Positions 69 through 49,938 of a stretch of DNA of 64,000 nucleotides are shown piece by piece. Every line of letters starts with the position of its first letter. The first letter of the stretch is position 1. A model generated the notes under the pieces. That model was given only the letters and a program-made list of their open reading frames with translations, was not told the origin of the DNA and searched no databases. Source of the stretch: a virus (taxonomy: Duplodnaviria; Caudoviricetes); the IMG/VR virus record IMGVR_UViG_3300034374_009547; one strand, written 5' to 3'. The translations under genes and the position numbers were made by a program.

Positions 69-3000
69 ATGGCAACAACAATTAGACACAAGCGAAGTGC
101 GGTCGCGGGTAAGCAACCGTTAGTTTCTCAATTAGAATCAGGCGAATTAGCAATTAATACAGCAGATGGTAAAGTATACCTATTGCGTGATGATAATACC
201 GTACAAGATATTACTAAAAGAATTTTTGAAGGTAACTCAGAAGTAAAAGTTGATGACCTTGGCGATAGTACGGTAGCTCAAATTAGTGCTACGGTTAATG
301 GTAATGAAGCATTAACAATCACTAATGCAGGATTTAATTTTAAAAATAATATAGATATTGAAAATGCAGGTACCTTAACTTTTAGAGAACTTACAGCTTC
401 AGGTGAAGACGGTGTAACTTTACAGCCTCCAAGTACACTAGACGCAGGTTATACTTTAACATTGCCACCTAACAAAGGTTCAGTCGGACAAATTTTAGCA
501 GTTAATGCTAGTGGAGAATTGTTTTTTAATGACGCAGATATTTTTGGCGGAAACGTTCTCTATGTTTCGCAAGAGCAAGGTGACGATGAAAACGATGGAC
601 AAAGTGCTCCAGTTAAAACGGTTAAACGTGCATGTCAAATTGCCTCAGGACTAGTTTATAATTCAGATGGTAGTATCAACTTCCGTAGAATCAACATCAA
701 AGTTGCGGTTGGCGATTATACTGAACAAAACCCAATCATTGTTCCTGATAACACGGTTATTAAAGGTGATGGTTTGCGTGGTTGTATTATTCGCCCTGCA
801 AACGCTAACTTAGATATTCTACGTGTCAGAAACGCTTGTTACTTTGGTGAATTTACTTTCCGTGATGGTGTCGACGATAACTTCGTGCCATTGATTACAG
901 GTGATTATTGTGTTGCATTTGATGATCCGGATGCAGTAGATGTGACAGATAGAAATACCTATCCAAACTTACCTAATACTAAACCAACTATTACAACATC
1001 ACCATATATTCAAAACTGCTCTATTCTTTCTTTCCTTGGGTTAAATGGTGCTAAGATCGATGGTAGTAAAGTTGAATCTCCTAACGTTCCTGTTAACCAA
1101 ATTGAAGCAGAAAATCCAGTTGTTGGCGCAATACCTGAACAAGGTAAATCGATGGTTGCCAACGCATTTACCATGCTTTCGTTTGGTGGTACTGGGTGGC
1201 GACTAACTAACGATGCTTATGCACAGATCGTTTCGTGTTTCCAAATTTTCTTGCTTAACGGTGTGTATACACAATCAGGTGGTTATTGTTCAATTACTAA
1301 CTCTGCTACAAACTTTGGTTTGTATGCTCTACGTTCAAGTGGTTATTCTCCAAAAGCATTCTCTTTTGACCGTTCGTTTGTAACTCAAACTGGTTCTAGT
1401 GAAGGTAAACAAACGGTTAGTGTTGTTGGTATTAATAGAGATGCTCCTGTTGAAGAATTTATTTTACGTTTTAGAGATCCAGATTATAAAACTGCTCATG
1501 ATTTACTTCTTTCAAATAAACTATCTATTGCAGAAGATACGGTAACATGGATTAATGCACAAATTGCAGCTTCATCACCTAGTATATGGGCTGGATTTAC
1601 ATATAATGAAGACAAGTGTCGTAGAGATACTAGACTATTAGTTGATTCTATTAGATATGATATTATTTTTAATAGCAATTATAGAACAATCAGTTCTGCA
1701 CTTCGTTATTTTAGTGGAAGTTTTACAAATTTTGCAGACCAAAAAGATCAACATATTGCAGCGTTTGCACAAGCAAAAGCATACACAGCAAATATATTAA
1801 ATGATGCAACTGCAACAAGTAGATCAAATGCACTTTGGGATGAAATTATTGACATTTTAACAAATGGTGATGCAAATACCGTTCCAGGCGATGCTGTTGC
1901 TGATGCTTATAGTTTTCCTGATCCGACTAACTATAACACATCTTACCTAGTAGGATATGGTGATGCAAGAGATCAACTGCAAGCAAACAAACAATTTATT
2001 ATTGATGAAATAACAGCTTGGATCGCTGTTCAAGTTGCTGCTGAAACTCCTCCTTTTGCTGGTTCATTTACATATGACGCAGCAAAATGTGAAAGAGACG
2101 TAGGATTAATTATAGACGCATTAATTTATGATATTACATATGGCGGCAACTTACAAACAAAACGTGCAGCAGAAGCATACTTTGTTGGCACAACTGCACA
2201 ATACGGAGCAAACCAAAAAGAAGAAACTATTGCAGCTTACGAAAGACTTAGAGACGTAATAGCTGATGTTATTTTAGAAGTAGCAGTTACTAAATCAACA
2301 GGTAATGCTCAAACACAAGATACAAGTAATACAGCAGGTAGTGCAGCAAGTAAAACATTTGCAGTGGCTAGAATTCAAGAAATTATTGATTTTATTGATG
2401 GTGGTGGTGTAAACGAAGTAACAACTATCGAGCCAGGCACAGATTGGGTTTCAGGTAATAATGAATTTGAAGCATATAATAGACTTAACAACGAGGGTGC
2501 TGTTAATATTGCTCAAAATACAACTGAATGGATCAATGAACAAATTCAAGCCAATATTTGGTATGGATTTACATACGATCAATCTAAGTGTCAACGTGAT
2601 ACACAATTGATTGTTGAAGCTGTTGCAAAAGATACTTGGGATACTGGTAACAGATATTCACGTAGTGCTGGCCTATCTTATTATACACAAAACTTACAAG
2701 ACTCGACTAGAATAAGCATTAGTGGACAAGAATTACAAACAATTGCAGCTATTGATCAAGCAGCAGTATATGCTAACACGTACATTACTAGTACAAGTAT
2801 TGCTGTACAAGATTTTGTTAATACTAGATTTGGAATCGTTACAACGGTTATTAATGATCCAAATGATTTACCACAACCAACTGAAGTAAGTAGTGAAGGT
2901 GATATTACAAACTCTTACAAAACAACACCAACAGAAACAACGTTTAATGCTGCTACAAACGTAAACGCTGATACAAATATTTTTACTATTACTAGTCATG

Positions 3001-9000: not shown

Positions 9001-10922
9001 ATGCACGTATTCAATCAAGTGGTGTTACACAGCACCAATTGGATATCACAGGTACTGGTGCGCTAAACGCAGGTAGTATTACAAGTGGCTTTGGCAACAT
9101 CAACATTGGTACAAGTATCTTCTCAGGTAATGGTAGTGGATTAACAACGCTAAATGCAAGCAACTTATCAAGTGGTACCGTTGCAGATGCACGTATTCAA
9201 TCAAGCAGTATTACACAACACCAAGGAGATATCACAGGTACTGGCGCACTAAACAGCGGTAGTATTACAAATGGATTTGGTAGCATTGATATTGGTACTG
9301 ACATATTTACTGGTAATGGTAGCGGACTTACAACTCTAAATGCAAGTAACTTGTCAAGCGGTACCGTAAGCGGTAGTAGACTTGGTGGAAATCAGTCAAT
9401 GGCAGGTGTAAAAACATTTAGCGACACAACTGCTTCTACAAGTACTACAACAGGTGCAGTAAAAATTGCAGGCGGTTTAGGTGTTGCAGGCGACTTATAT
9501 GCAGGTACACTTAACGGTAATGGTGCCGGATTAACCAGTCTAAATGCTTCTAATTTAGGTAGTGGAACCGTGCCTAACGCACGTATCAGTGGTACATACA
9601 GCAACATAACTGGTACAGGTGCTCTTAATGCAGGTGAGATTACAAGCGGCTTTGGTAACATCAATATTGGTACAAGTACATTTACTGGTAACGGTAGTGG
9701 ATTGACCAGCGTTAATGCTGCTACACTTGATGGCATTGATAGTTTAAGTTTCCTACGTAGTGACCAAGCAGACACAATGACCGGACTACTTACACTTAAT
9801 CATGCTGGTAATGAAATGTTACGTATGCAAGATACTGCTGCTGATGGATCGCCATATATTACATGGTATCAAGCAGGAACACGTAGAGGTTACATCCAAT
9901 ATGTTGACGGCGGTGATAGAATGTATATTGCTAACGAAGGTGGAAGTACTGCTATCGATCTTGACGGAGGTGTTAACGGACTTATCTTTAGAAATGGCGC
10001 AAATGCCTACACCGTTTGGCACAGCGGTAACGATGGTGCAGGTAGCGGACTAAGTGCTGATAACCTAGATGGTATTAGTTCAGGTAGTTTCTTACGCAGT
10101 GATGCTGATGATAGTTTCTCAGGAACACTTAGTGGTGCCGGTGCTATCAATATTACAGGTAACGTAACTGCTAATGCATTTAGTGGTGACGGTAGTGGAC
10201 TTACTGGTATTAGTGCAGACGATGCTAATACACTAGACGGTATTGATAGCAGTCAGTTCTTACGTAGCGATCAAAATGACACAATGGATGCAGGAGTCAA
10301 CACTACACTAACTATTTTGTCAGACGACACCGGTGCGTCAACTATTCAGTTGTACGGAAACAGCCAAGGTACTGGTAGAGTTTATGTAGGACAAAGTAGT
10401 GCATACGGTGGTGGTATTGAATACAACGGTGATAACTCTCCAGCAACAACTGGCGCTGGTAGTGATTACATCACACTATGGCGTAGAGATAACGGCACAG
10501 ATAGTTGGACAGGTAGAAACCAGTATAACAGCAACAACTGGGAGTTTAGAGGCGAAGTTACAGCGTATGCGTCAGATGCTAGACTCAAAGATGTTACAGG
10601 CAATATTGATAATGCTATAGAAAAAGTCAAAGCACTAAACGGTGTAATTTATACTTGGAATGATACTGCATATGAAAAAGGTTTAAAAACTTACGCAGAT
10701 GATAAAGCACCAGAAGCTGGTTTGCTTGCCCAAGAAGTTCAAAAAGTATTACCAGAAGTAGTTGTACCTGCTCCGTTTGATAAAGAATACCTAACTATCA
10801 AATATGAGCGTGTTGTACCACTACTTGTTGAAGCAATCAAAGAGCAACAAGCACAGATTGATGCTCAAGCAACGGAGATTGCAGAACTACGTGAAATGGT
10901 ACAAAAACTACTGGATAAATAA
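69..10922 (+). CDS. Giant tail fibre / adhesin (3617 aa) with C-terminal Peptidase_S74-type intramolecular chaperone
   Basis: N-terminal Mtd_N-like segment (KRSAVAGKQP...GELAINTADGKVY); beta-helix entry motif (LYVS..GDD.NDG..APVKT); xHGF/LxxG repeats; TLDGxDSxxFLRSD repeats; S/T/G-rich; C-terminal SDARLK...YERVVPLLVEAIKEQQAQI chaperone with coiled coil. Confidence 0.9.
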   Translation: MATTIRHKRSAVAGKQPLVSQLESGELAINTADGKVYLLRDDNTVQDITKRIFEGNSEVKVDDLGDSTVAQISATVNGNEALTITNAGFNFKNNIDIENAGTLTFRELTASGEDGVTLQPPSTLDAGYTLTLPPNKGSVGQILAVNASGELFFNDADIFGGNVLYVSQEQGDDENDGQSAPVKTVKRACQIASGLVYNSDGSINFRRINIKVAVGDYTEQNPIIVPDNTVIKGDGLRGCIIRPANANLDILRVRNACYFGEFTFRDGVDDNFVPLITGDYCVAFDDPDAVDVTDRNTYPNLPNTKPTITTSPYIQNCSILSFLGLNGAKIDGSKVESPNVPVNQIEAENPVVGAIPEQGKSMVANAFTMLSFGGTGWRLTNDAYAQIVSCFQIFLLNGVYTQSGGYCSITNSATNFGLYALRSSGYSPKAFSFDRSFVTQTGSSEGKQTVSVVGINRDAPVEEFILRFRDPDYKTAHDLLLSNKLSIAEDTVTWINAQIAASSPSIWAGFTYNEDKCRRDTRLLVDSIRYDIIFNSNYRTISSALRYFSGSFTNFADQKDQHIAAFAQAKAYTANILNDATATSRSNALWDEIIDILTNGDANTVPGDAVADAYSFPDPTNYNTSYLVGYGDARDQLQANKQFIIDEITAWIAVQVAAETPPFAGSFTYDAAKCERDVGLIIDALIYDITYGGNLQTKRAAEAYFVGTTAQYGANQKEETIAAYERLRDVIADVILEVAVTKSTGNAQTQDTSNTAGSAASKTFAVARIQEIIDFIDGGGVNEVTTIEPGTDWVSGNNEFEAYNRLNNEGAVNIAQNTTEWINEQIQANIWYGFTYDQSKCQRDTQLIVEAVAKDTWDTGNRYSRSAGLSYYTQNLQDSTRISISGQELQTIAAIDQAAVYANTYITSTSIAVQDFVNTRFGIVTTVINDPNDLPQPTEVSSEGDITNSYKTTPTETTFNAATNVNADTNIFTITSHGFTNGQKLIYDSDGNTPIVGLDNEQTYYVKILDANEFTLTFDESGDFDVDIRAVGANTHKFFSNVIEFFVEEVLSSHQTYQTLILESGAESYNFVPGRQISGTTGANNNSALVYEWEPRDRRLVVSVEEVSVGASTLRVQFDETSIISSDHSPSPNNTISINEVAAKTGLGTATFSITATDGSASLTNLVNLPEKQCWFHRPSIVNSSSHTWEYAGSGTDYNALPQNGGNTKEEFEQFEELPGRVYSSGTNELGDFKVGDFITAFNRTGNITFRNKVQVDELDALRLSLSDVAIEEISTSVNLGDDELGGPSDSRMVTQLAVRSFISNRLGGFVDKSVSTAAVPGAIVQLNTNGQLNPDLIPATRQFTNTNSNGYLSRLLLINTIPATDLKAGDIGTENYEQVELILSGNITAADGATITQPGVDGAIGYAKGSYSASGNILVATIGEAWDANEDSTGDPWEVSAGNLFVNGVDSGVNISSKGVSSEIIDNFFLRSSNSSQYLVLDVDDTYNFTTGVTISNLARTSNVVTVTTSTAHGFKIGNVARVYTSDDETFIQNGEVLTVPTSTSFTIANTGIDVSSFAVTDGKVYTIVTSADGNAQGAVTESRFGVLTNIDNTSITAGSGYLPSGGTLVYKDVPLTANTGVGTGATADITVTAGAVTDVDIATGGSGYAVGDLLSANNSNLGGAGSSFECEVVSVEKRAYVDILGGELFVASASSIDFVEDNDSVDTKKTINLDDTRGFNFLAGTTGGGGAVDYIDYRINIPNHGFTSGDPLKYDTLGNVAIGGLLNGNVYYAKSIDANNIELYEGFSLLNKVEFTSTPANNNHNLTRYVVNVVDNSILVEGHGLTTGDAIRIESLDDGSSANVLPDITGDAITSGSRFFVGSVTTNSFTLHELRSDALSSINDLVTNAKDIDDVGVGSADIIANNVSVQAVVNTSSKTKDNWSTLAVTNIDAENIISGTISPSRLGASGTPNSDTALFGDSGYKVVVQTLKKATTTDNPITLTGSSIGAEFYGDPVNIGIANVDFDALATFSKLGTARFLQTQFDVASDGSGQVFIKDGVVDAGTLDGLDSSYFLNPANLTSLVPVTRGGTAIGTYAIGDILYAQSSGSLNTLNIGRANNFLKSNGTTPEWGTALDLSEGLDVGSAKLSSTSTGTGSLYNENVTSLDIGGAATNIKIGSVDVTRNLLPFIDGYEATISQSVVVNLGSLTANTNDPVANGETEVPMADTSSILVGMLVTGSGSIPANTTVSGVTDDYIYLSANTTGTIFSGTTLTFTYTPFTIGVRDGDTINLNGTTVTNLDGSWPVIGATSIATSFTIRTTSNVTADPNDVVQGTATIDANMVIKTPKVIIGAAEASTSPTNASLEGSDGIGTDVAGGSMTIEAGIGTGNSTGADIIFKTGEVSTTSNNPQTSTERLRIDTSGKATFTGEVEVNNTISTTETTVALLDDTATTINMGGAATTVEIGAATGTTTIHNNVDIDLDLNVDGSDITTNQTGTFNLINTNATTLNIGGAATTINMGTGGDGGGTTTIGHDLVVTGDLTVNGNTTTINSTTLTVDDLNIVIASGAASAAAANGAGLTIDGANVTFTYDSGQDRMDLNEDLNLESGNAFFINDQSVLNATTLGAAVVNSSLQTLGTISTGIWQGTIISPTYGGTGINNGTKTITLGGNLTTSGAFNSTFTMTGATSVTFPTSGTLAITGNPLSQFASTTSAQLRGVLSDETGTGVAVFGTSPTFTTGINAASTTMALFDTTATTLNLARAATSITIGATTGTTNIRHNLNVTGDLDIDGGDLTFSDASINIANTTPTTITMGNAATTFTLGATTGTLTVRNATTTLNGNLNVNGNTIDTDETGTFNLVKDNVTTLAFAQAATEIVVGETKAAADLAGALGEMVVRLDLRTNNDMYIDGDLFVSQINNTPIGNVTPSTGAFTTLAANNFVTFTDATNATGATFATGTAAVKITGGLYVAKDIRADNFIGDMDASYLTSGIIPDARIQSSGVTQHQLDITGTGALNAGSITSGFGNINIGTSIFSGNGSGLTTLNASNLSSGTVADARIQSSSITQHQGDITGTGALNSGSITNGFGSIDIGTDIFTGNGSGLTTLNASNLSSGTVSGSRLGGNQSMAGVKTFSDTTASTSTTTGAVKIAGGLGVAGDLYAGTLNGNGAGLTSLNASNLGSGTVPNARISGTYSNITGTGALNAGEITSGFGNINIGTSTFTGNGSGLTSVNAATLDGIDSLSFLRSDQADTMTGLLTLNHAGNEMLRMQDTAADGSPYITWYQAGTRRGYIQYVDGGDRMYIANEGGSTAIDLDGGVNGLIFRNGANAYTVWHSGNDGAGSGLSADNLDGISSGSFLRSDADDSFSGTLSGAGAINITGNVTANAFSGDGSGLTGISADDANTLDGIDSSQFLRSDQNDTMDAGVNTTLTILSDDTGASTIQLYGNSQGTGRVYVGQSSAYGGGIEYNGDNSPATTGAGSDYITLWRRDNGTDSWTGRNQYNSNNWEFRGEVTAYASDARLKDVTGNIDNAIEKVKALNGVIYTWNDTAYEKGLKTYADDKAPEAGLLAQEVQKVLPEVVVPAPFDKEYLTIKYERVVPLLVEAIKEQQAQIDAQATEIAELREMVQKLLDK
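9001..9372 (+). repeat. 186-nt (62-aa) tandem duplication inside the tail fibre
   Basis: atgcacgtattcaatcaag at 9001 and again at 9187; DARIQSSxxTQHQxDITGTGALNxGSIT unit repeated, with a further degenerate copy near 9570-9720. Confidence 0.9.
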
Positions 10923-11190: not shown

Positions 11191-11571
11191 ATGAAATCTT
11201 TATACGAAGTGTTAAACATTGATTTAGCACAAGAATATACTAAAACTAGAAAACTAGCAAAATTACAAACACTAGAAATCAGCGATGCTCAACTAGAAAT
11301 TGAAGTTAAAAAAGCAATTGATAGCATGGATATTCCAGACGACGACGATCGTTATCATTGGATTCAAAAACTAGGTCACGCAGCAGGTGCAGATTTGCTT
11401 ACTATTGGTAAAGTACAACCTGAAAATATGCTTGCAATGGCAGCATTAAATGCTGATGATTTTCAAGAAGCAGTAAAAGTAGCTACAGGTACTGCACGTA
11501 ATTGGAACAAACAAACTATTGAAGCTGAAAAGCAACTAGCAGAAGAATCTATGCCAACAACTATCTTGTAA
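11191..11571 (+). CDS. Hypothetical protein (possible fibre assembly factor)
   Basis: Strong AGGAG SD; helical 126 aa; position downstream of the fibre; function not recognised. Confidence 0.6.
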   Translation: MKSLYEVLNIDLAQEYTKTRKLAKLQTLEISDAQLEIEVKKAIDSMDIPDDDDRYHWIQKLGHAAGADLLTIGKVQPENMLAMAALNADDFQEAVKVATGTARNWNKQTIEAEKQLAEESMPTTIL

Positions 11572-12155
11572 TGAAACTAGCAATTTGTGTTCCAACAAGA
11601 GACACGGTACATACATTATTTGCAGTAAGTTTGTGTAATCTTACAAACACACTTACAAAAAACAATATAGATTTTAATGTCCATATTGTTGCAGGAAGTG
11701 TAATATGCAATAGTCGAACTAGATTAGCCAAAGAAGCATTAGAAACAGGTGCAACACATTTGCTTTGGTTAGATAGTGATATGGCTTTTGCATCAAATGT
11801 TGTAGAACAACTACTAAACCACAACAAAGACATAGTGGCTGCAAATTACAGCACACGGTATGCTCCTTATCAAAGTGTTGCTTTTGTAGACCCTGACGAT
11901 ATGGATTGTAGATTAAATGCAACCAATGGTTTACATAAAGTTTGGGCTGTAGGCATGGGTTGTATGCTTGTAAAATCACAAGTTTACAAAGATTTACCAA
12001 AGCCTTGGTTTGATCACGAATATAATAAAAAATTAGACAACTTCAGCGGCGAGGATATATATTTTTGTAATCAGGCGATGCATCACGGTTATGAAGTATA
12101 TGTTGATGCAGATGTAAAATTATCGCATATAGGAATAAAGGCAAACACATTATGA
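11571..12155 (+). CDS. GT-A fold (GT2-like) glycosyltransferase
   Basis: KLAICVPT N-terminal strand, LLWLDSD DxD motif, GMGCMLVK and GEDIYFC motifs. Confidence 0.8.
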   Translation: MKLAICVPTRDTVHTLFAVSLCNLTNTLTKNNIDFNVHIVAGSVICNSRTRLAKEALETGATHLLWLDSDMAFASNVVEQLLNHNKDIVAANYSTRYAPYQSVAFVDPDDMDCRLNATNGLHKVWAVGMGCMLVKSQVYKDLPKPWFDHEYNKKLDNFSGEDIYFCNQAMHHGYEVYVDADVKLSHIGIKANTL

Positions 12156-24635: not shown

Positions 24636-25010
24636 ATGAGTTCAGTAACAGATGCAAGTATTAATCCATCAACAGATAGTGCAAGTGAAATAAAACAATT
24701 CTTTGATCAGTATTTTTCTAATCCAATACAATATTCTAGTAACGAAGTTGATAGTGTTGTAGGATTTTTTACAAAACGTGGTTTTGATCAACAAGCCAGT
24801 ATCAGTGTAGCAACTACATTATTACAACAAGCAAAAGTAGAAAAGAAACCAATCTTTCAATTATTAGATACACTGAAAGGTTTAGATAGTATACAATTAA
24901 GTAAATTAATTGCAGCAATACTTAATAGTAATCGTAGTTATACAAGTGCTTTAGGATATGTTAATAATGAAAATGGTGAAACAACCGAAAGTAGGAACAT
25001 TATTGTTTAA
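24636..25010 (+). CDS. Hypothetical protein
   Basis: Coupled ORF in the structural operon. Confidence 0.6.
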   Translation: MSSVTDASINPSTDSASEIKQFFDQYFSNPIQYSSNEVDSVVGFFTKRGFDQQASISVATTLLQQAKVEKKPIFQLLDTLKGLDSIQLSKLIAAILNSNRSYTSALGYVNNENGETTESRNIIV

Positions 25011-25447
25011 TGGCACGCTTTGCACAAGGAAAGTATACTTTAAAAAATCCTTCTAAGTACATTGGTGGTAGAACACCGACTTATAGAAGTAGTTGGGAAT
25101 TTGCTTTCATGCGTATGTGTGATACTAATGAAAGTATTACAAAATGGGCCAGTGAAGCAATAAAGATTCCATACAGAAATCCTTTAAGTGGAAAATTTAC
25201 AATCTACGTTCCAGATTTTTTTGTTGTTTACACTGATAGAAATGGCAAGCAACATGTAGAACTTATAGAAGTAAAACCTAGTAATCACACTCTTAAAGAA
25301 AAAACTGGCCGCAGTAGAACTAACCAATTACATTTTGCAGTTAATCAAGCCAAATGGACTGCTGCTAGAGCATATTGTAAACAAAAAGGTATGACGTTTA
25401 GAATAGTTACTGAAAATGAAATGTTTCACCAAGGTAAAAGAAGATGA
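25010..25447 (+). CDS. Head completion nuclease (T4 gp4-like, TnsA-type PD-(D/E)xK)
   Basis: YRSSWE, WASE.IKIPY, YVPDFF, IEVKP, NQAKWTAA motifs. Confidence 0.9.
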   Translation: MARFAQGKYTLKNPSKYIGGRTPTYRSSWEFAFMRMCDTNESITKWASEAIKIPYRNPLSGKFTIYVPDFFVVYTDRNGKQHVELIEVKPSNHTLKEKTGRSRTNQLHFAVNQAKWTAARAYCKQKGMTFRIVTENEMFHQGKRR

Positions 25448-35385: not shown

Positions 35386-36327
35386 ATGGGAAAATATCGT
35401 GTTTCTGGGGTACTTAATCCAACAGAAAGTATTAAAGCAAGTAACATTACTAAATGGCACAAAGGTGATAGAGTTGACTATTGGCCAAAAGATATGATGG
35501 CTGAAAATAATGTTAACGGAGTGTTAAATGAATTGTTTTCTGCATACGGACCTCCAAAACCTATTTTTAGACCACAAGATAAAGTTTTGACTATGGGAAG
35601 TTGCTTTGCATTACGCATTAGAGAATGGATGGAAAAGAACGGAAGAGGCACAGAAGCACTTTTTATTCCAGAAGGATTAAACAATAGTTTTGCAGTAAGA
35701 CAATTTATAGAATGGGCATTAACAGGTAATCGTAGTCACGATGCTTATTGGTATGATGAATTAGCAGACGGTGTAGGTAAATGGGAATCTCCTGAAGAGC
35801 AAGAACAAATAAAAAAACATTTTATCAATCACAACGGATTTGTTATTACTTTTGGTTTAGCAGAAGTTTGGAAAGACAAAGAAACCGGAGGCGTATTTTG
35901 GAGAGGTGTGCCTAATGATATGTTTGATCCCAACAAACACGAATCTGTTGTTAGTACCGTAGAAGAAAATATTGCAAATATAAAAACAATTGTTGAGTTG
36001 TTAAGAAAATACTGCGGCAATAAACCTATTATTATTACACTAAGTCCTGTACCACTTAATGCTACATTTCAAGAAAGACCATGTGTAGTTAGTGATTGTG
36101 TAAGCAAAAGTATATTACGTGTTTCAATAGACGAAGCATTAAGAAACATTAATGATAAAAATGTATATTACTGGCCTAGTTTTGAATATGTTAAATGGAT
36201 TCCTAGCCATATGCCAATTGTAACATTTGGTGGCAAAAAAGGAAAGAAAATTACTGATAGTAGACATGTAGCAGAGACTGCTGTATCAAACATTATTAGT
36301 AATTTTGCTAAAAAGTTTTTTATATAA
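35386..36327 (+). CDS. GSCFA-family (SGNH-like) protein
   Basis: LTMGSCFA, ITFGLAEVW, TLSPVPL, SKSILR, YWPSFE, DSRHV motifs; TATAAATA at 35356. Confidence 0.85.
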   Translation: MGKYRVSGVLNPTESIKASNITKWHKGDRVDYWPKDMMAENNVNGVLNELFSAYGPPKPIFRPQDKVLTMGSCFALRIREWMEKNGRGTEALFIPEGLNNSFAVRQFIEWALTGNRSHDAYWYDELADGVGKWESPEEQEQIKKHFINHNGFVITFGLAEVWKDKETGGVFWRGVPNDMFDPNKHESVVSTVEENIANIKTIVELLRKYCGNKPIIITLSPVPLNATFQERPCVVSDCVSKSILRVSIDEALRNINDKNVYYWPSFEYVKWIPSHMPIVTFGGKKGKKITDSRHVAETAVSNIISNFAKKFFI

Positions 36328-36337
36328 GGTGTAAGAA

Positions 36338-37000
36338 ATGGATACTGATCTCCTTTATGGTTGGCATGTATTACAAGGTGATAGTACTCTAGAGAGAGCT
36401 TTTAATAAATCTAAAATTTCAACTATTTTAGATTATCAAAAAGATCAATTAGATACAGCAATATCTTTTTGTAAAAACTTTAGACATACTATTGACATTG
36501 GAGCCAATTATGGACTAATGTCGGCTAATATGTCTAATATATTTAAAAAAGTTTCTGCATTTGAAATAGTTCCTGAAATTAATGCTTGCTTTAAAATGAA
36601 TGCAAAAAAATTTAATTTACAAAATGTAGAAATATATGACTGCGGATTAGGCGACAAAAAAGAAAAAGTTTCTATAAATTTTAATCCTAAAAGTACCTTT
36701 TCAACTCATATTAGTACAAATCAAGAAAATACTACCAAGGTAAAAATTTCTACATTAGATTCATTTAATTTTACAAATGTAGATTTTATTAAAATTGATG
36801 CAGAAGGGTTTGAACCTTTTATTATCAAAGGTGGTTTAAAAACAATTTTAAAATATAAACCTGTAATTCTTTATGAAAGAAAAGGACATGAAAAAAGATA
36901 TGGATTTCAAAAAAATTCAGTACTAGATATTTTATCTCGCCATGGATATACAGAGTTAGCTAATATAGGAAGCAAAAATGCTTTGATAGGTGTGAAATGA
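36338..37000 (+). CDS. FkbM-family SAM-dependent methyltransferase
   Basis: IDIGANYG, DFIKIDAEGFE, KYKPVILYE. Confidence 0.88.
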   Translation: MDTDLLYGWHVLQGDSTLERAFNKSKISTILDYQKDQLDTAISFCKNFRHTIDIGANYGLMSANMSNIFKKVSAFEIVPEINACFKMNAKKFNLQNVEIYDCGLGDKKEKVSINFNPKSTFSTHISTNQENTTKVKISTLDSFNFTNVDFIKIDAEGFEPFIIKGGLKTILKYKPVILYERKGHEKRYGFQKNSVLDILSRHGYTELANIGSKNALIGVK

Positions 37001-37617
37001 AAAAAGTATTTGAATACTGGATGCCAGATACAGATGAACACTTTGAAAGATTAATTGCAAAAAGAGTTAAAAATGGTGGCCCGCCGCAGTATCAAGATGA
37101 TGTAAGAGATGAAGCATACAAGTATGTAAGTGACTTTAACATTGCAGTTGACATAGGTGCTAATGTTGGTCTGTGGTCTAAACCTCTTACAGAAAAGTTT
37201 AACCAAGTAATAGCTTACGAACCTCTTGAGCAAGTATATTCGTGCTTAGAAAGAAATGTAAGTGGACTGCCTGTACAAATTCATAAACACGCATTAGGCA
37301 GTGTTAATGATGTAGTTGAAATGGTATTTGACGAAGAAAACACAGGCGGCAGTTTTGTTAGTGAAATTGGCACCGGTAGTATTCAAATTAAAAGATTAGA
37401 TGATTTAAATTTACCAAAGTTTGGATTATTAAAAATTGATTGTGAAAGACATGAATTAGAAGTGTTAAAAGGCGCAATGGATACTATCCTTAGATACAAA
37501 CCAATTATAGTATGTGAACAGCAAGCTGACACAGATCAATGTGCAGGTATGTATTTGAAATCTTTTGGCGCCAGAGAAATAACAAACGTAAGGAAAGACT
37601 ATATCTTTGGATGGTAA
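36997..37617 (+). CDS. FkbM-family SAM-dependent methyltransferase (paralog)
   Basis: VDIGANVG, LLKIDCERHE, RYKPIIVCE. Confidence 0.85.
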   Translation: MKKVFEYWMPDTDEHFERLIAKRVKNGGPPQYQDDVRDEAYKYVSDFNIAVDIGANVGLWSKPLTEKFNQVIAYEPLEQVYSCLERNVSGLPVQIHKHALGSVNDVVEMVFDEENTGGSFVSEIGTGSIQIKRLDDLNLPKFGLLKIDCERHELEVLKGAMDTILRYKPIIVCEQQADTDQCAGMYLKSFGAREITNVRKDYIFGW

Positions 37618-38476
37618 AATTTTATTAACTGGTTCACACGGATTTATTGGCAGTCATTACTACAAACATTTACAAAAACAAAATGCATATGTAGTACCTT
37701 ACGATAAAAAAATCCGCGGTGAAGATTTATCAGATAAAAATACTACACAATTATTACCTGACTATGATATTGTAGTACACCTTGCTGCAACTAATGGCAC
37801 TAAATTATTTTATGAACAGCCAACTGATGTACTAATAAATAATACACTACCAACAATAAATTTAATTGAACGTTATAAAAATACCAATACTAAATTTGTT
37901 TTTGCTAGTACTTGTGAAATATTTAATGGAGCAATTGATGCAGGTTATTACCATGTGCCAACTGATGAGCAAGTACCGGTTGTGTTTAACGACATTACGA
38001 ATCCAAGATGGAGTTATAGCATTCCGAAAGCTCTAGGTGAAAACCTAGTAGCAAACAGCGGATTAGATTATTTAATTATTAGATATTTTAATGTTTATGG
38101 TCCAGGACAAGTAGATCATTTCGTCAACGAATTTGTAGAACGCTGTAAACGTGGCGAGTATTATATTAAAGGCGATGATACTAGAAGTTTTTGTTATATA
38201 GATGATGCAGTGCAAATGACTGACATTCTTATCAAAAAATCTTGTAGTAACATAGTGCATGTTGGAAATGACAACGAAGTAAAGATAAGCGTAGTAGCAA
38301 AACTTATTATGGGCTTTATGGGTATAAATCCTGACAAGTTACAAATACTACCAGGTCCAGAAGGCAGTGCAAAACGTAGATGTCCTGATACAACACTAGT
38401 ACAAATGCTAACAGGATTTACTAATTATACTCCTTTAGACGTTGGACTTAAAAAAACAATAGAAAGTTTATTATGA
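37607..38476 (+). CDS. NAD-dependent epimerase/dehydratase (UDP-glucuronate decarboxylase-like)
   Basis: TGSHGFIG, HLAA, ASTCE, RWSYSIPK (YxxxK), RYFNVYGP. Confidence 0.88.
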   Translation: MDGKILLTGSHGFIGSHYYKHLQKQNAYVVPYDKKIRGEDLSDKNTTQLLPDYDIVVHLAATNGTKLFYEQPTDVLINNTLPTINLIERYKNTNTKFVFASTCEIFNGAIDAGYYHVPTDEQVPVVFNDITNPRWSYSIPKALGENLVANSGLDYLIIRYFNVYGPGQVDHFVNEFVERCKRGEYYIKGDDTRSFCYIDDAVQMTDILIKKSCSNIVHVGNDNEVKISVVAKLIMGFMGINPDKLQILPGPEGSAKRRCPDTTLVQMLTGFTNYTPLDVGLKKTIESLL

Positions 38477-39216
38477 TTATAGGTGTAGTAGGTATAGGTG
38501 TTGTTGGAAAAGCAAATGTTAACGGCTTTAAAAGGTTAGGACACACCGTACTTGAGCACGATGTCAAATATAATACAGCTTTAAGAGATGTGTTGACTGC
38601 AGAAATTATTTTTATTTGCACTCCTGAAGACCAAGTTAATAATGTTGTAAAAGATATTAGCCTGTATGATTATAAAGGAGTAGTAGCAATTCGAAGCACA
38701 ACTACTCCGGGTACTACAGATGAACTAATAAAAAAACATAACATAGATATTTGTTTTGTACCTGAATTTCTTAGACAAAATTATGCTGACAAAGATTTTG
38801 AACAATGTGATTTATTAGCTATTGGTACAAATAATTTAAAAATAGGACGTAAAGTAAGAAACGCTTTTGGTAAGTTACCTAAAAATGTAGATTATATGAT
38901 GCCAGCAGAAGCAGAAATATTGAAATTATATAATAACTCTTATGCAGCACTTAGAGTTGTGTTTGCTAATATTATGTACGATATTGCCAACAAATATGAT
39001 GCAGATTATAGTGTTATAAAAAATGCGTATAAAAAAACAAATAAAACAAGTGGAAATTATTTAGATGTAAATAAAAATTTACGTGGTTATAGCGGTGCCT
39101 GTTTACCTAAAGACACTTTAGCTCTTTCTAAATTAATTAATGATCTTAAATTAGATTACACACTTGTACAATCGATTCATAACGATAATTTAAAATTACC
39201 AAAAAATAAAACTTAG
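38473..39216 (+). CDS. ugd: UDP-glucose/GDP-mannose 6-dehydrogenase family, lacking the C-terminal domain
   Basis: GIGVVG, RSTTTPG, PEFLR, AEILKLYNNSY, GYSGACLPKD catalytic Cys. Confidence 0.8.
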   Translation: MIIGVVGIGVVGKANVNGFKRLGHTVLEHDVKYNTALRDVLTAEIIFICTPEDQVNNVVKDISLYDYKGVVAIRSTTTPGTTDELIKKHNIDICFVPEFLRQNYADKDFEQCDLLAIGTNNLKIGRKVRNAFGKLPKNVDYMMPAEAEILKLYNNSYAALRVVFANIMYDIANKYDADYSVIKNAYKKTNKTSGNYLDVNKNLRGYSGACLPKDTLALSKLINDLKLDYTLVQSIHNDNLKLPKNKT

Positions 39217-39239
39217 TAAAGTACGCATATAAATACTAC

Positions 39240-40007
39240 ATGAAAGTAGTACTAGTTACAGGTGGATTTGATCCTCTACATTCCGGGCACATTGCCTATT
39301 TTAAAGCAGCACGAGAACTTGGAGATCACTTAGTAGTTGGTCTTAATTCTGATGCTTGGCTTACACGCAAAAAGGGTCGTCCGTTTATGTCAATTGATGA
39401 ACGGGCTGCCATTGTTAAAGAACTAGAATGTGTAGATGAAGTTATAGCATTTGACGATAACGACAACACAGCATGTCTTGCTATAGGGCAAGTTTTATCT
39501 ACAAAGGCAAGTAGTTGGAAACTTATCTTTGCTAATGGCGGTGATAGAACAAATAAAACAACACCAGAATTTGAAACTTGGGGCAATCATCCTGATGTTG
39601 AATTTGCCTGGGGTGTTGGCGGTAAAGATAAGAAAAACTCAAGCAGTTGGATACTCAAAGATTGGAGTCAACCTACAACAGAACGTGCTTGGGGCAAATA
39701 CACTATATTAGATAAAGGTGAAGGTTGGCAAGTTAAACAACTTGAGTTTGCAGCAGGTAAAGCACTTAGTGATCAACGACACTTTAAACGCAGCGAACAC
39801 TGGCACGTTGTTAATGGCGTTATCAATATGTTCCTTGAAGATAAAATAGGAAGAAGAACTAGCACACTATTAACGCCAGGTGATAGTATTGACATTCCAA
39901 TAGGCTATTGGCATAAGGCTGTAAATTTAGATAACAAAGCAGCAAAAGTTATAGAAGTCTGGATGGGTAAAGAATTAAGTGAAGAAGATATAGAAAGAAG
40001 AGATTAA
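39240..40007 (+). CDS. Cytidylyltransferase-like domain (HldE/TagD type) fused to a cupin (mannose-6-P isomerase C-terminal-like)
   Basis: TGGFDPLHSGH, ANGGDR, NSSSWIL; then RAWGKY...SDQRHFKRSEHWHVV...IPIGYWH. Confidence 0.88.
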   Translation: MKVVLVTGGFDPLHSGHIAYFKAARELGDHLVVGLNSDAWLTRKKGRPFMSIDERAAIVKELECVDEVIAFDDNDNTACLAIGQVLSTKASSWKLIFANGGDRTNKTTPEFETWGNHPDVEFAWGVGGKDKKNSSSWILKDWSQPTTERAWGKYTILDKGEGWQVKQLEFAAGKALSDQRHFKRSEHWHVVNGVINMFLEDKIGRRTSTLLTPGDSIDIPIGYWHKAVNLDNKAAKVIEVWMGKELSEEDIERRD

Positions 40008-41686
40008 TGAAAGTATTTGTAGGATGGGATAGCAGAGAAGATATTGCTTATCAAGTTTGTAAAAGTAGTATTGAAGAAACAAGTAGTGTACCTGTAGAAA
40101 TTATTCCATTGAAACAAAAGTCACTGAGAGGTGACGGTGTATACACTCGTGAAATAGATCAACTCGCAAGCACAGAATTTACATTTACAAGATTTTTAAT
40201 TCCGCATTTGTGTAACTATGAAGGTTGGGCATTGTTTATTGACTGCGATTTTGTTTTTCTAGAAGATATTAAACTGCTTTGGGATCAACGTGACGAAAGC
40301 AAAGCTGTAATGTGTGCTCATCATGATTATACACCTAAACCTGGGTCAACTAAAATGGATGGACAAGTACAACACGCTTATCCAAGAAAAAATTGGTCGA
40401 GTATGATGCTAATAAATTGTGGTCATCCTGGTAATGCTAAATTAACTTTAGATGTAGTAAATGACATGGCAAGAACTGGTGCATACTTTCATAGATTTAG
40501 CTGGTTAAAAGACGAAGAAGTAGGTGAGCTTAGTCATGAATGGAATTGGCTAGTAGGTTGGTATGAAGAACCGGTTGATGGAAAGCCAAAAGCACTACAT
40601 TACACAGAAGGCGGACCTTGGTTTGATGATTATGCTACCTGTGAATATAATATAGAATGGTATAGAGCTCATATTCAATATGCTAAAAAAATGGAGCAAA
40701 GTTATCAATATAAGTTATATAGGGAACGTAACAAAGAAATAGATGTCGACGATTTATCCTATACGGAGTCAAAAAAAAAATTAATTAAGCAATTTTTAAA
40801 TAACTTAATTGATCCTACCCAAGTTTATTTTAAAAATGAAACAATAGAGAATGATGATGATATGGGAATAAAAACTGCTGCAATTGCTGTGCAAAAAGAA
40901 GAATTTAATTTAGAAAAAAAGGGATTAGAATACGATCCTTATCTGAAAGCATTTATAAATGGCAGCGGCGGTTTTATTAGCGACTTTGATAGAGAACAAT
41001 ATACAGATAACACTCTTGTTATTAGAGGCTTAGGCGGCGGTGGACAAAAAGCAATAAAATATTGTTTAGAAAATAAAAGAGATTTCTACGCAATTGATAC
41101 TGGTTATATCCAACCAGGAACAAAAAAAGAATACCATCGTATTACAAAAAATAGTTTACAAGCATTAAATTTTAAACCTATGGCAAGCGATCGTTTAGCA
41201 AAATTAAATTGGAAACCTGGCAAACCAAAAACTGGAAGTAAAATTTTAGTTGTTCCTCCGAGCGAAAAAGTTATGAAATTTTACGATCAAGATCTTGATG
41301 CTTGGATGAAATTAACAATTGAAAACATCAAAAAACATACTGATCGTCCTATTGAAGTTAGATTAAAACCAGGAAGATCAGAAAGAGTTACAAAAAACAC
41401 AATTTGGGATGCTATGGCTAATGATGTGTATTGCCTAGTAACATTTAATAGTATTGCTGCATCAGAAGCATTCTTATTTGGATTGCCTGCTATTGCACTA
41501 GCACCAAATGCTGCTAGTGCATTTTGCAATACTAGTATTGCAGACATTGAAAACAATTTACGTATACCTCATAGATCAACACAAGTAGAACTTGCAAATT
41601 TTTTAAGTTATAATCAATTTACACAAGCAGAAATGAAAGACGGAACAGCATGGAGAATTCTCACAGAAAATTATGAAAGTAGTTAG
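40007..41686 (+). CDS. Fusion of a GT8-like glycosyltransferase and a capsule-synthesis (KpsC/KpsS-like) GT-B domain
   Basis: N-terminal STEFTFTRF, FIDCDF, YPRKNWSS, HYTEGGPW; C-terminal YAIDTGY, RLKP, VTFNSIAASEAFLFGLP. Confidence 0.75.
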   Translation: MKVFVGWDSREDIAYQVCKSSIEETSSVPVEIIPLKQKSLRGDGVYTREIDQLASTEFTFTRFLIPHLCNYEGWALFIDCDFVFLEDIKLLWDQRDESKAVMCAHHDYTPKPGSTKMDGQVQHAYPRKNWSSMMLINCGHPGNAKLTLDVVNDMARTGAYFHRFSWLKDEEVGELSHEWNWLVGWYEEPVDGKPKALHYTEGGPWFDDYATCEYNIEWYRAHIQYAKKMEQSYQYKLYRERNKEIDVDDLSYTESKKKLIKQFLNNLIDPTQVYFKNETIENDDDMGIKTAAIAVQKEEFNLEKKGLEYDPYLKAFINGSGGFISDFDREQYTDNTLVIRGLGGGGQKAIKYCLENKRDFYAIDTGYIQPGTKKEYHRITKNSLQALNFKPMASDRLAKLNWKPGKPKTGSKILVVPPSEKVMKFYDQDLDAWMKLTIENIKKHTDRPIEVRLKPGRSERVTKNTIWDAMANDVYCLVTFNSIAASEAFLFGLPAIALAPNAASAFCNTSIADIENNLRIPHRSTQVELANFLSYNQFTQAEMKDGTAWRILTENYESS

Positions 41687-42602
41687 TTATCTAAGTGTTG
41701 TTCCTACTAAAAACAGCAATCAACAAAAAACAGAATTACTAAGAAGGTATGTAGAAGGCGTTCAAAAAAATGGTGACACTGGTATACTACACACAGGCTA
41801 TCAACTTATCCCTGCAGATGTAGCAGTAATTCAAGGATGGGTGTATGAAAATAAAGCACCTGTACATTTAAAGTTACGTAATGATGTTATAGAATATCAA
41901 AAATTGCGAGACAGGTATACGTGTGCTGCTGATGCAAATTTATTAAATTATGCAAACAAACAAAATCCATTAGGATATCTACGGTATAGTTTTAATGGAG
42001 TTTTCCCTCATACTGGAATATATTGTGATAATAACATAGATGTTCAACGATGGAATAAAATTTCTGCAAATTATAAGATAAAGATAGAACCAACAAAAAG
42101 AAAAGGTAAATGGATTATACTTATGCTCCAACGAAACGGAGGTTGGAGTATGCAAGGAGAAGATGTACAAGATTGGGCATTAAAAACTATAAAAAGAATA
42201 CGCAAATACACAGATAGACCTATTCTAATAAGAGCACATCCTGGCGACCAAAAAGCACAGCATTATCTAAATGAAAGACGCACTAGACTAAAAAATTTAC
42301 CAGGAGTAAAAATATCTCCAATTGGCAGAAGTTTAGAAGAAGATTTAACTAAATGTTGGGCAGTTGTAAATCATAATAGTAGTGCAGTAGTTGGTCCTAT
42401 GATACAAGGCTATCATACATTTATTACAGATGCAGGAGCAAGTCAATGTAGAGACGCTGCAAATACCGAATTGCAGTATATCGAGAATCCTTTAGAATTT
42501 GATAGAGAAAAATGGGCTCAACGAATAAGTATGTTTACTTGGAACTTTGCAGAATTATCATCTGGTGAATGCTGGTCACATATGAAAAATTATTGCCAAT
42601 AA
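41673..42602 (+). CDS. KpsC/KpsS-like GT-B glycosyltransferase
   Basis: LQRNGGWS, ILIRAHPGD, AVVNHNSSAVVGPMIQG pattern. Confidence 0.6.
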   Translation: MKVVSYLSVVPTKNSNQQKTELLRRYVEGVQKNGDTGILHTGYQLIPADVAVIQGWVYENKAPVHLKLRNDVIEYQKLRDRYTCAADANLLNYANKQNPLGYLRYSFNGVFPHTGIYCDNNIDVQRWNKISANYKIKIEPTKRKGKWIILMLQRNGGWSMQGEDVQDWALKTIKRIRKYTDRPILIRAHPGDQKAQHYLNERRTRLKNLPGVKISPIGRSLEEDLTKCWAVVNHNSSAVVGPMIQGYHTFITDAGASQCRDAANTELQYIENPLEFDREKWAQRISMFTWNFAELSSGECWSHMKNYCQ

Positions 42603-47811: not shown

Positions 47812-48080
47812 GAGCACCAGATCTGATACCCGGCCAGCCACTAATATATGAACGTGCTGATGGCGTAGTTTACGCTAGGTATCGAGATCCTCCATACAAT
47901 GAGCTATATGACAGATGGATAATCGGCGGAGATGCAGATGCTGTAAGTAGAGCAACAGGTAACCTATTTAGTTATGCAGATTGGCAAGAAATGATGGAAC
48001 TAGCAAAAGAATATCCAACATTAAAAAAACAAATGCAGAAACTAGTAACAACATATTATATGGTAAAGGAAAATAAATGA
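47808..48080 (+). CDS. Hypothetical protein
   Basis: ATGA-coupled ORF. Confidence 0.6.
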   Translation: MRAPDLIPGQPLIYERADGVVYARYRDPPYNELYDRWIIGGDADAVSRATGNLFSYADWQEMMELAKEYPTLKKQMQKLVTTYYMVKENK

Positions 48081-49153
48081 ACAATTACATTTTTACTAGC
48101 GAAAGTGTTAGTGATGGTCACCCAGATAAGGTTGCAGACCAAATCTCAGATGCACTAGTTGATGCTGGGTTGAAAGCAGGAGACGAGACAACTCGTGTTG
48201 CTGTTGAAACACTTGTAACTACCAATCATGTAACATTGGCGGGCGAAGTAAAAAACTTTAATGTGAGCAAAGAAGAAGTCAAAGAAATTGTGCGCAATAA
48301 AGTTAAAGAGATTGGTTATGAGCAGAGAGGTTTTCATTGGGACAAATTAAATATTTACAATGAGATCCACAGCCAAAGTGCTGACATTGCACTAGGAACT
48401 GATGACTTCGGTGCAGGCGACCAAGGCATTATGTTTGGCTATGCTTGTAATGATAATGAAGCATATCTGCCTGCACCTATTTACTACGCTCACGAAATAC
48501 TAAAAAAACTTAAAAACTTTTCTCCTTGCTTGCGTCCAGATGCAAAATCTCAAGTTAGTGTCGAATACGAAGGTGGCAAAGTTAAGCGCATTGATCAAGT
48601 TGTGATAAGTACACAGCACGAACTAGATAAAAACACACAAGCAAAAAATTGTGCAAGACATGTGGCAAAAGAAGTACTAGGAGACTTAGTTGATAAAGAT
48701 ACTATATGGCATCTTAATCCTACTGGCAACTTTGTTATTGGTGGGCCTGATGGTGACGCTGGTGTTACTGGACGTAAGATTATCGTTGATACTTATGGCG
48801 GTTTTGCTCCTCACGGCGGCGGTGCTTTTAGTGGCAAAGATCCCACCAAAGTAGATAGAAGTGCAGCCTATATGGCTCGTTGGTTAGCAAAGAATGTTGT
48901 AGCAGATGATATGGCAGACTGGTGTCAAATTCAGTTATCGTATGCTATCGGTGTAAAAGAACCTACTAGTATCTATGTTGATTCAAATGGACACAATCGT
49001 AGTATACAACGTTTTATTCGTGAAAACATTGATCTAACACCAAAAGGCATTATTGATAGATTTGACTTGTTTAACTTTCACCAGTATAGTAGTAATTGTA
49101 CATACGGACACTTTGGCAACAAAGATGTACCTTGGGAAAGGATTGGTTGGTAA
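48077..49153 (+). CDS. metK: S-adenosylmethionine synthetase
   Basis: FTSESVSDGHPDK, GAGDQG, GRKIIVDTYGG, GGGAFSGKDPTKVDRS. Confidence 0.98.
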   Translation: MNNYIFTSESVSDGHPDKVADQISDALVDAGLKAGDETTRVAVETLVTTNHVTLAGEVKNFNVSKEEVKEIVRNKVKEIGYEQRGFHWDKLNIYNEIHSQSADIALGTDDFGAGDQGIMFGYACNDNEAYLPAPIYYAHEILKKLKNFSPCLRPDAKSQVSVEYEGGKVKRIDQVVISTQHELDKNTQAKNCARHVAKEVLGDLVDKDTIWHLNPTGNFVIGGPDGDAGVTGRKIIVDTYGGFAPHGGGAFSGKDPTKVDRSAAYMARWLAKNVVADDMADWCQIQLSYAIGVKEPTSIYVDSNGHNRSIQRFIRENIDLTPKGIIDRFDLFNFHQYSSNCTYGHFGNKDVPWERIGW

Positions 49154-49938
49154 TGCGTATTATTGCAGGACCGTGTCAACACGAAACACTAGAACAAAGT
49201 TTAGAGATTGCATCGGAGTGCAAACGTGTATGTGACTTGTTTGACATTGAATATATTTTTAAAGCAAGTTTTGACAAAGCAAATAGAACAAGCATAGCAG
49301 GCAAACGTGGAGTAGGAATGCCTGCAACTATGCAAGACTTTATTGATATTAAAGAAAAAATAAATGTTAAAACATTAACAGACGTACATGATGTTATGCA
49401 GATAAAAGCAATATGTAATCAATTCAATTATGCAATCGACGTGTTACAGATTCCTGCATTTTTGTGTAGACAAACAGATTTAATTCAAGCAGCATGTAAA
49501 ACAAATAAAATTGTAAATATCAAAAAAGGGCAATTCTTGGCACCTTGGGATGTTAAAGGTATACTAAGTAAAACTGAAGGTGCTAGAGAAGTTTGGATAA
49601 CCGAAAGGGGTACTAGTTTTGGGTATAATACTTTGGTCACTGATTTTACTGGCATCCAGTATATGCGTGACAATTTTTCTGTTCCTGTGGTATTTGACGT
49701 CACACACTCAGTCCAGAAGCCAGGAGGCCAAGGTGACAGCAGTGGTGGGAATAGGGATTATGTTCCAGCTCTTGCTCGTGCTGCTGCTGGCATGGGCGTT
49801 GATAACTTTTTCTTAGAAGTACATGTTGATCCAGATAACGCTCCAAGTGATGGACCTAATATGTTACGCTTAGAAGACTTTGTCGAAACCGTACGACAAT
49901 TATATCATATCAATAAAACCGTAAAAGGATTCGAATGA
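49153..49938 (+). CDS. kdsA: Kdo-8-phosphate synthase
   Basis: IIAGPC, KASFDKANRTS, QIPAFLCRQTDL, KKGQFLAP, ERGTSFGY, FDVTHSVQ, EVHVDP..APSDG; start coupled (TAATG). Confidence 0.96.
   Translation: MRIIAGPCQHETLEQSLEIASECKRVCDLFDIEYIFKASFDKANRTSIAGKRGVGMPATMQDFIDIKEKINVKTLTDVHDVMQIKAICNQFNYAIDVLQIPAFLCRQTDLIQAACKTNKIVNIKKGQFLAPWDVKGILSKTEGAREVWITERGTSFGYNTLVTDFTGIQYMRDNFSVPVVFDVTHSVQKPGGQGDSSGGNRDYVPALARAAAGMGVDNFFLEVHVDPDNAPSDGPNMLRLEDFVETVRQLYHINKTVKGFE

Follow-up and report, generated by a model that had tools for sequence, protein, structure and literature searches.

The DNA analyzed here is a 64,000-nucleotide stretch (the window) of a tailed virus (Duplodnaviria; Caudoviricetes), held as IMG/VR record IMGVR_UViG_3300034374_009547. 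It opens with a single 10.9-kb open reading frame (ORF) for a tail-fiber protein of 3617 amino acids (aa), P0001 (Table 1), whose residues ~475 to 930 are three tandem phycobiliprotein-type globin domains (helices A to H, without the N-terminal X-Y hairpin). P0001 matched the tail-fiber PHROGs phrog_5342 (E, 2e-106), 17885, and 4527 and is adjoined by T4-like gp15, gp13, and sheath genes, beyond which lie those for terminase, gp32, and UvsX. Local PHROG matches lie at aa 1 to 80 (phrog_3442 and phrog_29752) and aa 304 to 485 (phrog_5342, 17885, 529, and 9851); the N-terminal scaffold (aa 1 to 470) matched no Pfam family. A C-terminal Peptidase_S74 chaperone is typical of trimeric fibers, and P0001 carries one (PF13884) along with its tail-fiber PHROGs and its place in the tail gene block. 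Because of this domain, from which the trimeric state is solely taken, the units are probably arrayed in threes, side by side, along the proximal shaft.

Table 1. Coordinates in the window of the fiber gene, its three units, and their motifs
Feature	Position	Strand	Basis
Giant tail-fiber gene P0001	69..10922	+	Single ORF; PHROG tail-fiber families; Peptidase_S74 on product
N-terminal anchor and tail-fiber scaffold, aa 1-470, ahead of modules	69..1478	+	PHROG matches
Phycobiliprotein-like unit 1, aa 475-620	1491..1928	+	739-unit profile, E 4.5e-47; 35% identity to unit 2
C-R-R-D motif, unit 1, Cys517	1617..1628	+	Read in sequence
Phycobiliprotein-like unit 2, aa 623-797	1935..2459	+	739-unit profile, E 3.7e-56; AlphaFold2, Foldseek, VIA
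C-E-R-D motif, unit 2, Cys674	2088..2099	+	Read in sequence
Phycobiliprotein-like unit 3, aa 801-930, folded part	2469..2858	+	739-unit profile, E 5.3e-31; AlphaFold2, VIA
C-Q-R-D motif, unit 3, Cys841	2589..2600	+	Read in sequence
C-terminal intramolecular chaperone region (Peptidase_S74)	10500..10919 (approximate)	+	PF13884 listed for product

A sequence-only reading of the window had described three helical-looking units, spaced 157 and 167 aa apart, at 1488 to 2862 (residues 474 to 932 of the 3617-aa ORF), and this layout held, with units of about 150 aa: the strings KCRRDTRLLVDSIRYDII, KCERDVGLIIDALIYDITYGG, and KCQRDTQLIVEAVAKD occur letter for letter in P0001, and Cys517, Cys674, and Cys841 have the spacing given. 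The units share 34 to 35% pairwise identity, with 26 invariant columns, and all three score far past chance against a profile of 739 homologous units (Table 1). No further ORF of the window holds the unit, leaving three copies there. Immediately upstream, outside the window, L001:502-9891 (3129 aa) encodes a paralogous fiber-like protein with ~12 units, 10 of them with C-x-R-D; the two proteins share 39% identity over 440 aa, covering three consecutive units in each.

Searching 1.84 billion proteins with a profile of the three units retrieved 1232 cluster representatives (E ≤ 0.001). The best 150 of these were nearly all giant proteins of 900 to 6400 aa with up to 35 matched stretches, and the 739 full units cut from them, with a diverse subset of 82 as a smaller alignment, served for the profiles and models below. 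The cysteine, on whose conservation in homologs the sequence-only reading had depended, is kept in 96% of the 739 units, the arginine of C-x-R-D in 94%, and the aspartate in 99%. Further conserved positions in the same set are an Asp at Cys+14 (100%), a Tyr at Cys+30 (99%), a Tyr five residues ahead of the Cys (85%), and the N of G-G-N (81%). Mean column identity over the 82-unit alignment is just 20%.

When the 82-unit profile was compared with all PDB sequences, 28 of the 30 matches were phycobiliproteins, mostly C-phycocyanin alpha (best E, 0.0066). The alignments put akCkRDvglIvdAvayDllygGn opposite phycocyanin alpha, with C-R-D on Cys84/Arg86/Asp87, the bilin-site residues with which it had been equated from the sequence. 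A Pfam scan placed 12 of the 82 units in PF00502 (best E, 1.7e-7), every other family having two matches at most. The PF00502 model in turn matched two giant ORFs of cyanophage S-PM2, one of them at 30 bits when neighboring stretches were summed (cut-off, 22.2). With hhalign, the 739-unit profile was aligned to four real CpcA and CpcB genes from the Acaryochloris plasmid pREB3 (probability, 87%; P, 3.9e-6; 96 columns) with C-R-D in register; its C-x-R-D falls on the K-C-x-R-D of phycocyanin alpha and of A. marina CpcB. The three units of P0001 reach no Pfam family on their own, PF00502 included; their membership in that family rests on the family profile. Likewise, a phmmer search of PDB sequences with a 521-aa region of P0001 returned nothing; phycobiliproteins were reached by profile only.

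Units 2 and 3 were modeled with AlphaFold2, unit 2 with the 82-unit alignment. The model of unit 2 (predicted local distance difference test [pLDDT], 92.4; predicted template modeling score, 0.88) is nearly all helix save one short hairpin; that of unit 3, the most divergent (pLDDT, 86.8), has helices up to model residue 130. Both models contain the globin helices A, B, E, F', F, G, and H. For unit 2, the best 50 Foldseek matches in the PDB were all phycobiliproteins or derivatives engineered from them (E, 5.6e-3 to 3.6e-2; template modeling score, 0.44 to 0.61), and the top eight of an exhaustive VIA search of the PDB were phycobiliprotein or ApcE chains (Z, 14.1 to 11.9; root mean square deviation [rmsd], 2.3 to 3.3 Å; 121 to 146 aligned residues). 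The top eight for unit 3 in VIA were again all phycobiliproteins or ApcE (Z, 14.3 to 11.5; rmsd, 1.9 to 3.4 Å), and over both units the phycobiliprotein alignments span 111 to 146 residues. Sensor globins and photocobilins rank below them (Z ≤ 11.4; about 10 for unit 2), so the phycobiliprotein-type globin fold proposed from the sequence is the one that the models return. Foldseek against AFDB clusters gave weak rows only (E > 0.1), for the most part globin-sensor domains with a single phycocyanin alpha, and an ESM Atlas feature search gave no usable match to the units. The X-Y hairpin is judged absent because the structural alignments begin at phycobiliprotein residues 26 to 54; the hhalign match begins at template column 39.

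Helical models may reach a VIA Z near 14 without homology, so a fold match alone is no proof, and the likeness could in principle be convergence or an artefact of helical-bundle matching, the units then being an unrelated helical repeat. The Foldseek E-values of 5.6e-3 and weaker and the lack of Pfam matches for P0001's own units would fit such an artefact. Four independent lines, namely the PDB profile search, the PF00502 matches, the hhalign comparison, and the structure searches, nevertheless agree on family and register, and this explanation, already disfavored, is very improbable. We are highly confident that the units share homology and fold with the bilin-binding globins (phycobiliproteins).

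Among 50,697 isolate phage records, the module occurs in 185, of which 184 bear the name Synechococcus, Prochlorococcus, or Cyanophage and one the name "Marine." The records give the cyanomyovirus proteins that carry it no description beyond tail fiber, short tail fiber, or structural protein. At least 599 stretches in IMG/VR match one 8-residue form of the motif. Separately, a degenerate DNA pattern for EKCFRDLGYIIDA had no match in the viral contig collection. The prokaryote genome collection yielded five module loci only, all in metagenome bins; three that share one bin at very different coverage are probably mis-binned phage contigs, and the scan gives no evidence for cellular copies. Stand-alone units (98 to 313 aa) accounted for seven matches, mostly on ~1-kb contigs, and are likely pieces of giant proteins. 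The module family lives almost exclusively in giant fiber or virion proteins of aquatic phages, at up to ~35 copies per protein, and is a large, unannotated branch of the phycobiliprotein family in phage tail fibers that keeps the pigment-site residues. Full-text literature searches turned up no description of phycobiliprotein-like, CXRD, bilin-binding globin, or globin-like domains in phages or tail fibers.

The terminase of the phage is nearest, at ~65% DNA identity, to those of jumbo phages such as PA5oct. Forty related IMG/VR contigs were searched, all of them fragments at 10 to 71% CheckV completeness; the best, 41 to 270 kb long in that completeness range, imply genomes of about 370 kb. 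In these contigs the module always lies within giant ORFs, several per genome. The sequence-only reading had implied a marine phage, which the metagenome occurrences do not bear out: the sequencing runs that contain window DNA belong to 17 studies, on freshwater, aquatic, and salt-marsh metagenomes.

To our knowledge, the sole ligand of CXRD in the phycobiliprotein fold is a linear tetrapyrrole, joined by a thioether to the Cys, with the Arg and Asp keeping it in place. The helix E bilin site of the units (K-C-x-R-D-[VI]-G-Y and G-G-N, together with other invariant acidic and aromatic residues) appears to be under strong purifying selection, and because of this conservation the pocket most likely still binds a ligand. 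That C, R, and D are kept at 94 to 99% although the family has otherwise diverged to ~20% identity speaks for a bilin. CXRD is the bilin-binding motif of phycobiliproteins, and BBAG globins with CXRD attach bilins themselves, without a lyase (PMC10151467). Tandem phycobiliprotein-type domains in a fiber, with a pocket that binds a bilin, are the best overall explanation of the sequence, one that we hold tentatively and that falls just short of an even chance. Bilin binding by the units of this phage in particular is possible, if a little under even, and for the cyanomyovirus copies the chances look evenly balanced; chromophorylation is plausible, with lower odds in this lyase-less freshwater jumbo phage than in cyanomyoviruses. 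Since no bilin enzyme was found in the phage, attachment would need a host-made bilin and either autocatalysis, as in BBAG globins, or a host lyase. A pigmented fiber would serve as a light-responsive or photoprotective element.

Indirect support for attachment comes from cyanomyoviruses only, through their cpeT genes and adsorption phenotypes. Seventeen isolate phage genomes were scored for the module and for CpeT. Both are present in 11 (S-PM2, P-HM1, P-HM2, S-SM1, P-RSM4, Syn33, Syn19, S-SSM5, P-SSM4, Syn9, and Syn1), the module only in two (S-ShM2 and P-SSM7), CpeT only in none, and neither in four (P-SSM2, P-SSP7, S-SM2, and S-SSM7). The co-occurrence gave a one-sided Fisher p of 0.006, or 0.022 when the podovirus was left out and P-HM1 and P-HM2 were counted as one, in both cases with no phylogeny correction. 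The cpeT gene precedes the first module by 1.3 to 4.9 kb, on the same strand, in 11 records from about ten species, and in S-PM2 and Syn1 the gene order is GC730, cpeT, a 2OG-Fe(II) oxygenase gene, the giant fiber gene, and gp12. The oxygenase gene between cpeT and the fiber gene (T4-like GC 104) occupies NC_006820.1 165307-165888 in S-PM2 and NC_015288.1 20572-21144 in Syn1. The S-PM2 RefSeq record also annotates 16 tRNA features (NC_006820.1 168556-173383) inside its 11.3-kb "short tail fiber" coding sequence; the record's coordinates seem to be offset here, with no real overlap.

Module presence also fits the published adsorption phenotypes and is offered as a lead, the comparison covering five phages of which at most four are independent. 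Liu et al. 2019 (PMC6628666) report that darkness prevents the adsorption of P-HM1 and P-HM2 and, citing Jia et al. 2010, that of S-PM2, but not that of P-SSM2 or the podovirus P-SSP7; the effect is reported to be independent of host photosynthesis. Module matches number nine in S-PM2 and five each in P-HM1 and P-HM2, with none in P-SSM2 or P-SSP7. We propose that cyanomyovirus modules could be chromophorylated during assembly by CpeT, the T-type lyase that the phage encodes just upstream of the fiber gene, and that light absorbed by the bilin would alter fiber conformation and permit adsorption in the light only; in lyase-less freshwater jumbo phages, the modules might instead attach host biliverdin themselves. 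This proposal, in which phage virions carry a photoreceptor of their own in the form of chromophorylated fiber modules, is unlikely to hold.

A number of points weigh against a bilin in the pocket. Genes for heme oxygenase, ferredoxin-dependent bilin reductase (FDBR), CpeT, and psbA were found in 0 of the 40 related jumbo-phage contigs (≤270 kb), and hemO, pcyX/pebS/pcyA, and CpcT/CpeT, which the sequence-only reading had named as genes to look for, were not found among the 53 ORFs of the window, and neither was psbA. The jumbo-phage clade is probably not one of cyanophages and has no evident pigment supply. With up to 35 units per chain, many bilins would be needed per virion, and we know of no report of colored virions. 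The two most conserved residues of the module, the invariant D and Y, lie outside the classic phycobiliprotein site residues, and the pocket may have been refilled or repurposed; what is said here of a ligand is inference throughout. In the cyanophages, the cpeT association is confounded by common ancestry and by the conserved synteny of T4-like genomes, and S-ShM2 and P-SSM7 are exceptions to it. Heme oxygenase and FDBR do not track the module, P-SSM2 having ho1 and an FDBR gene without the module and S-PM2 having neither enzyme. T-type lyases normally act on Cys153/155, not on the Cys84-type site (PMC10452541).

Several of these observations are what would be expected if the module were a ligand-free spacer, a phycobiliprotein-derived globin domain recruited as a compact, duplicable unit of long trimeric fibers, with C, R, D, D, and Y kept as a buried polar network or folding nucleus. 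Copy number runs from 3 to ~35 per protein, always in giant fiber ORFs, as expected of a unit that sets length; the two paralogous fibers of this phage differ chiefly in repeat number (3 versus ~12); the module's own invariants (D at Cys+14 and Y at Cys+30) exceed the Cys in conservation; and bilin genes were not found in the window or the 40 related contigs. We regard such a spacer as a serious possibility at rather less than even odds. It has difficulty with the 94 to 99% conservation of ligand-contact residues at ~20% overall identity, which is hard to account for structurally, and with the use of CXRD for bilin binding in known relatives (PMC10151467). Non-bilin globins that match the models share just 4 to 11% identity with them and appear in none of the sequence searches. 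A ligand-free role also leaves unexplained the co-occurrence with cpeT and the restriction of isolate matches to cyanophages.

The pocket might instead bind or carry something other than a bilin, such as a metal ion held by Cys/Asp/Asp/Tyr or a modification of the Cys (S-glycosylation, or a thioether made by a phage tailoring enzyme). The invariant set C, D, D, D, Y, and N is rich in metal and sugar ligands, and glycosyltransferase, sugar-nucleotide, methyltransferase, and radical S-adenosylmethionine (SAM)/SPASM genes surround the fiber genes. Such a use has no known precedent in the phycobiliprotein fold, T4-like cyanophages retain the motif and are not known to carry such gene islands, and the nitroreductase family (PF00881) was found in 0 of the 40 related contigs; we consider it quite improbable. 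Two other candidates were set aside. Heme binding is ruled out, no conserved His being present in the profile, and an inter-chain disulfide through the Cys is not expected in a protein that folds in the cytoplasm and would leave the conserved Arg and Asp unexplained.

If the bilin site is used, virions carry bilins, and the module becomes a molecular candidate for light-dependent cyanophage adsorption. Phage bilin genes would then have a place for their products to go, a question that PMC11480375 leaves open for non-cyanophages, and phage CpeT would have a substrate. Were the photoreceptor proposal true, it would account for the light-only adsorption of S-PM2, P-HM1, and P-HM2 and explain the purpose of phage cpeT and, in part, that of phage bilin genes. 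If the site is unused, the family is a plain example of how a pigment protein can be taken over as a repeated structural unit.

Beyond the fiber gene, the window encodes sugar-nucleotide and 3-deoxy-D-manno-octulosonate enzymes, FkbM methyltransferases, SAM synthetase, glycosyltransferases, a carbamoyltransferase, and replication proteins. An Anp1-like glycosyltransferase gene (11571-12155; PF03452; E, 2.2e-8) lies ~650 bases downstream of P0001, past one 126-aa ORF. A sugar and tailoring cluster at 35386-42602 and 48077-50603 comprises GSCFA, two FkbM methyltransferase genes, an epimerase/dehydratase gene, a UDP-glucose dehydrogenase-like gene, a cytidylyltransferase-cupin fusion, GT8, SAM synthetase, and KdsA-like and KdsB-like genes. 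Virion proteins or the surface of the host may be what this cluster decorates. A gene with a TnsA-like endonuclease domain (25010-25447; PF08722; E, 7e-24) stands among those for tail and packaging proteins. At 56906-58414 and 60038-61684 lie a carbamoyltransferase gene that contains both Pfam halves and a 548-aa ORF in which the NTPase and finger domains are the sole parts of DNA polymerase III alpha. Approximately 12 to 26 kb upstream of the window (L138:1126-2769 and L137:6418-7257), a tryptophan-halogenase-like gene stands between Sbc-like nuclease genes and the portal gene, and a radical SAM/SPASM gene directly follows the gp23 major capsid gene. About 46 kb upstream (L140:15119 onward) is a gene for 4637 aa with weak CBM_5_12 and FG-GAP matches, the first 2015 aa of which contain no phycobiliprotein-like unit.

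Light harvesting in cyanobacteria, red algae, and cryptophytes is the role ascribed to phycobiliproteins, and BBAGs and photoglobins are their relatives in some bacteria. The units of P0001 resemble those of PF00502 in their globin core A to H and in K-C-x-R-D-[IV]-G-Y where helix E begins, followed by G-G after the helix; the best sequence match is C-phycocyanin alpha, and the best structural matches are phycoerythrin and allophycocyanin. Unlike phycobiliproteins, they have no X-Y hairpin and so form no alpha-beta protomer, they have an additional invariant Asp and Tyr, and they come with no bilin, lyase, or linker genes in the window or the related contigs searched. Phycobiliproteins are free subunits of 160 to 170 aa, whereas the units here stand in tandem inside a 3617-aa virion fiber. 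ApcE likewise has a phycobiliprotein domain within a large multidomain polypeptide, and its chains rank near the top of the structure searches (4xxi_A [Z, 13.2 and 13.8], 7eyd, 7sc7, and 9wg7); ApcE, a part of the phycobilisome, has one such domain followed by linker repeats, in contrast to the 3 to ~35 tandem copies of phage fibers.

Photoglobins or photocobilins and globin-coupled sensors share the globin-like superfold (Z, 8 to 11.4), and photocobilins also bind a bilin, but their structural match is weaker, they gave no sequence signal, and their motif is CXQD or none. BBAGs (Rockwell, Martin and Lagarias 2023, PMC10151467) are, like the units, phycobiliprotein paralogs from outside cyanobacteria that do not harvest light, some with CXRD. 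They differ in being single-domain cellular proteins clustered with heme oxygenase and pre-PcyA genes, and no such clustering with heme oxygenase or FDBR genes was seen among the 53 ORFs of the window or in any of the 40 related contigs. BBAG-1 and BBAG-3 attach bilins independently of a lyase (PMC10151467), the mode that a lyase-less phage would need. Cyanomyoviruses infect bilin-rich hosts and mostly carry cpeT, whereas the phage of P0001 is a freshwater jumbo phage with no cpeT in the window or its relatives' contigs. Their giant fibers (S-PM2 p091 and the T4-like GC 734 protein, Syn1_032, and the 6076-aa ORF of Syn9) nonetheless contain the same module, with the motif KC[KR]RDIGYF[VI]DA.

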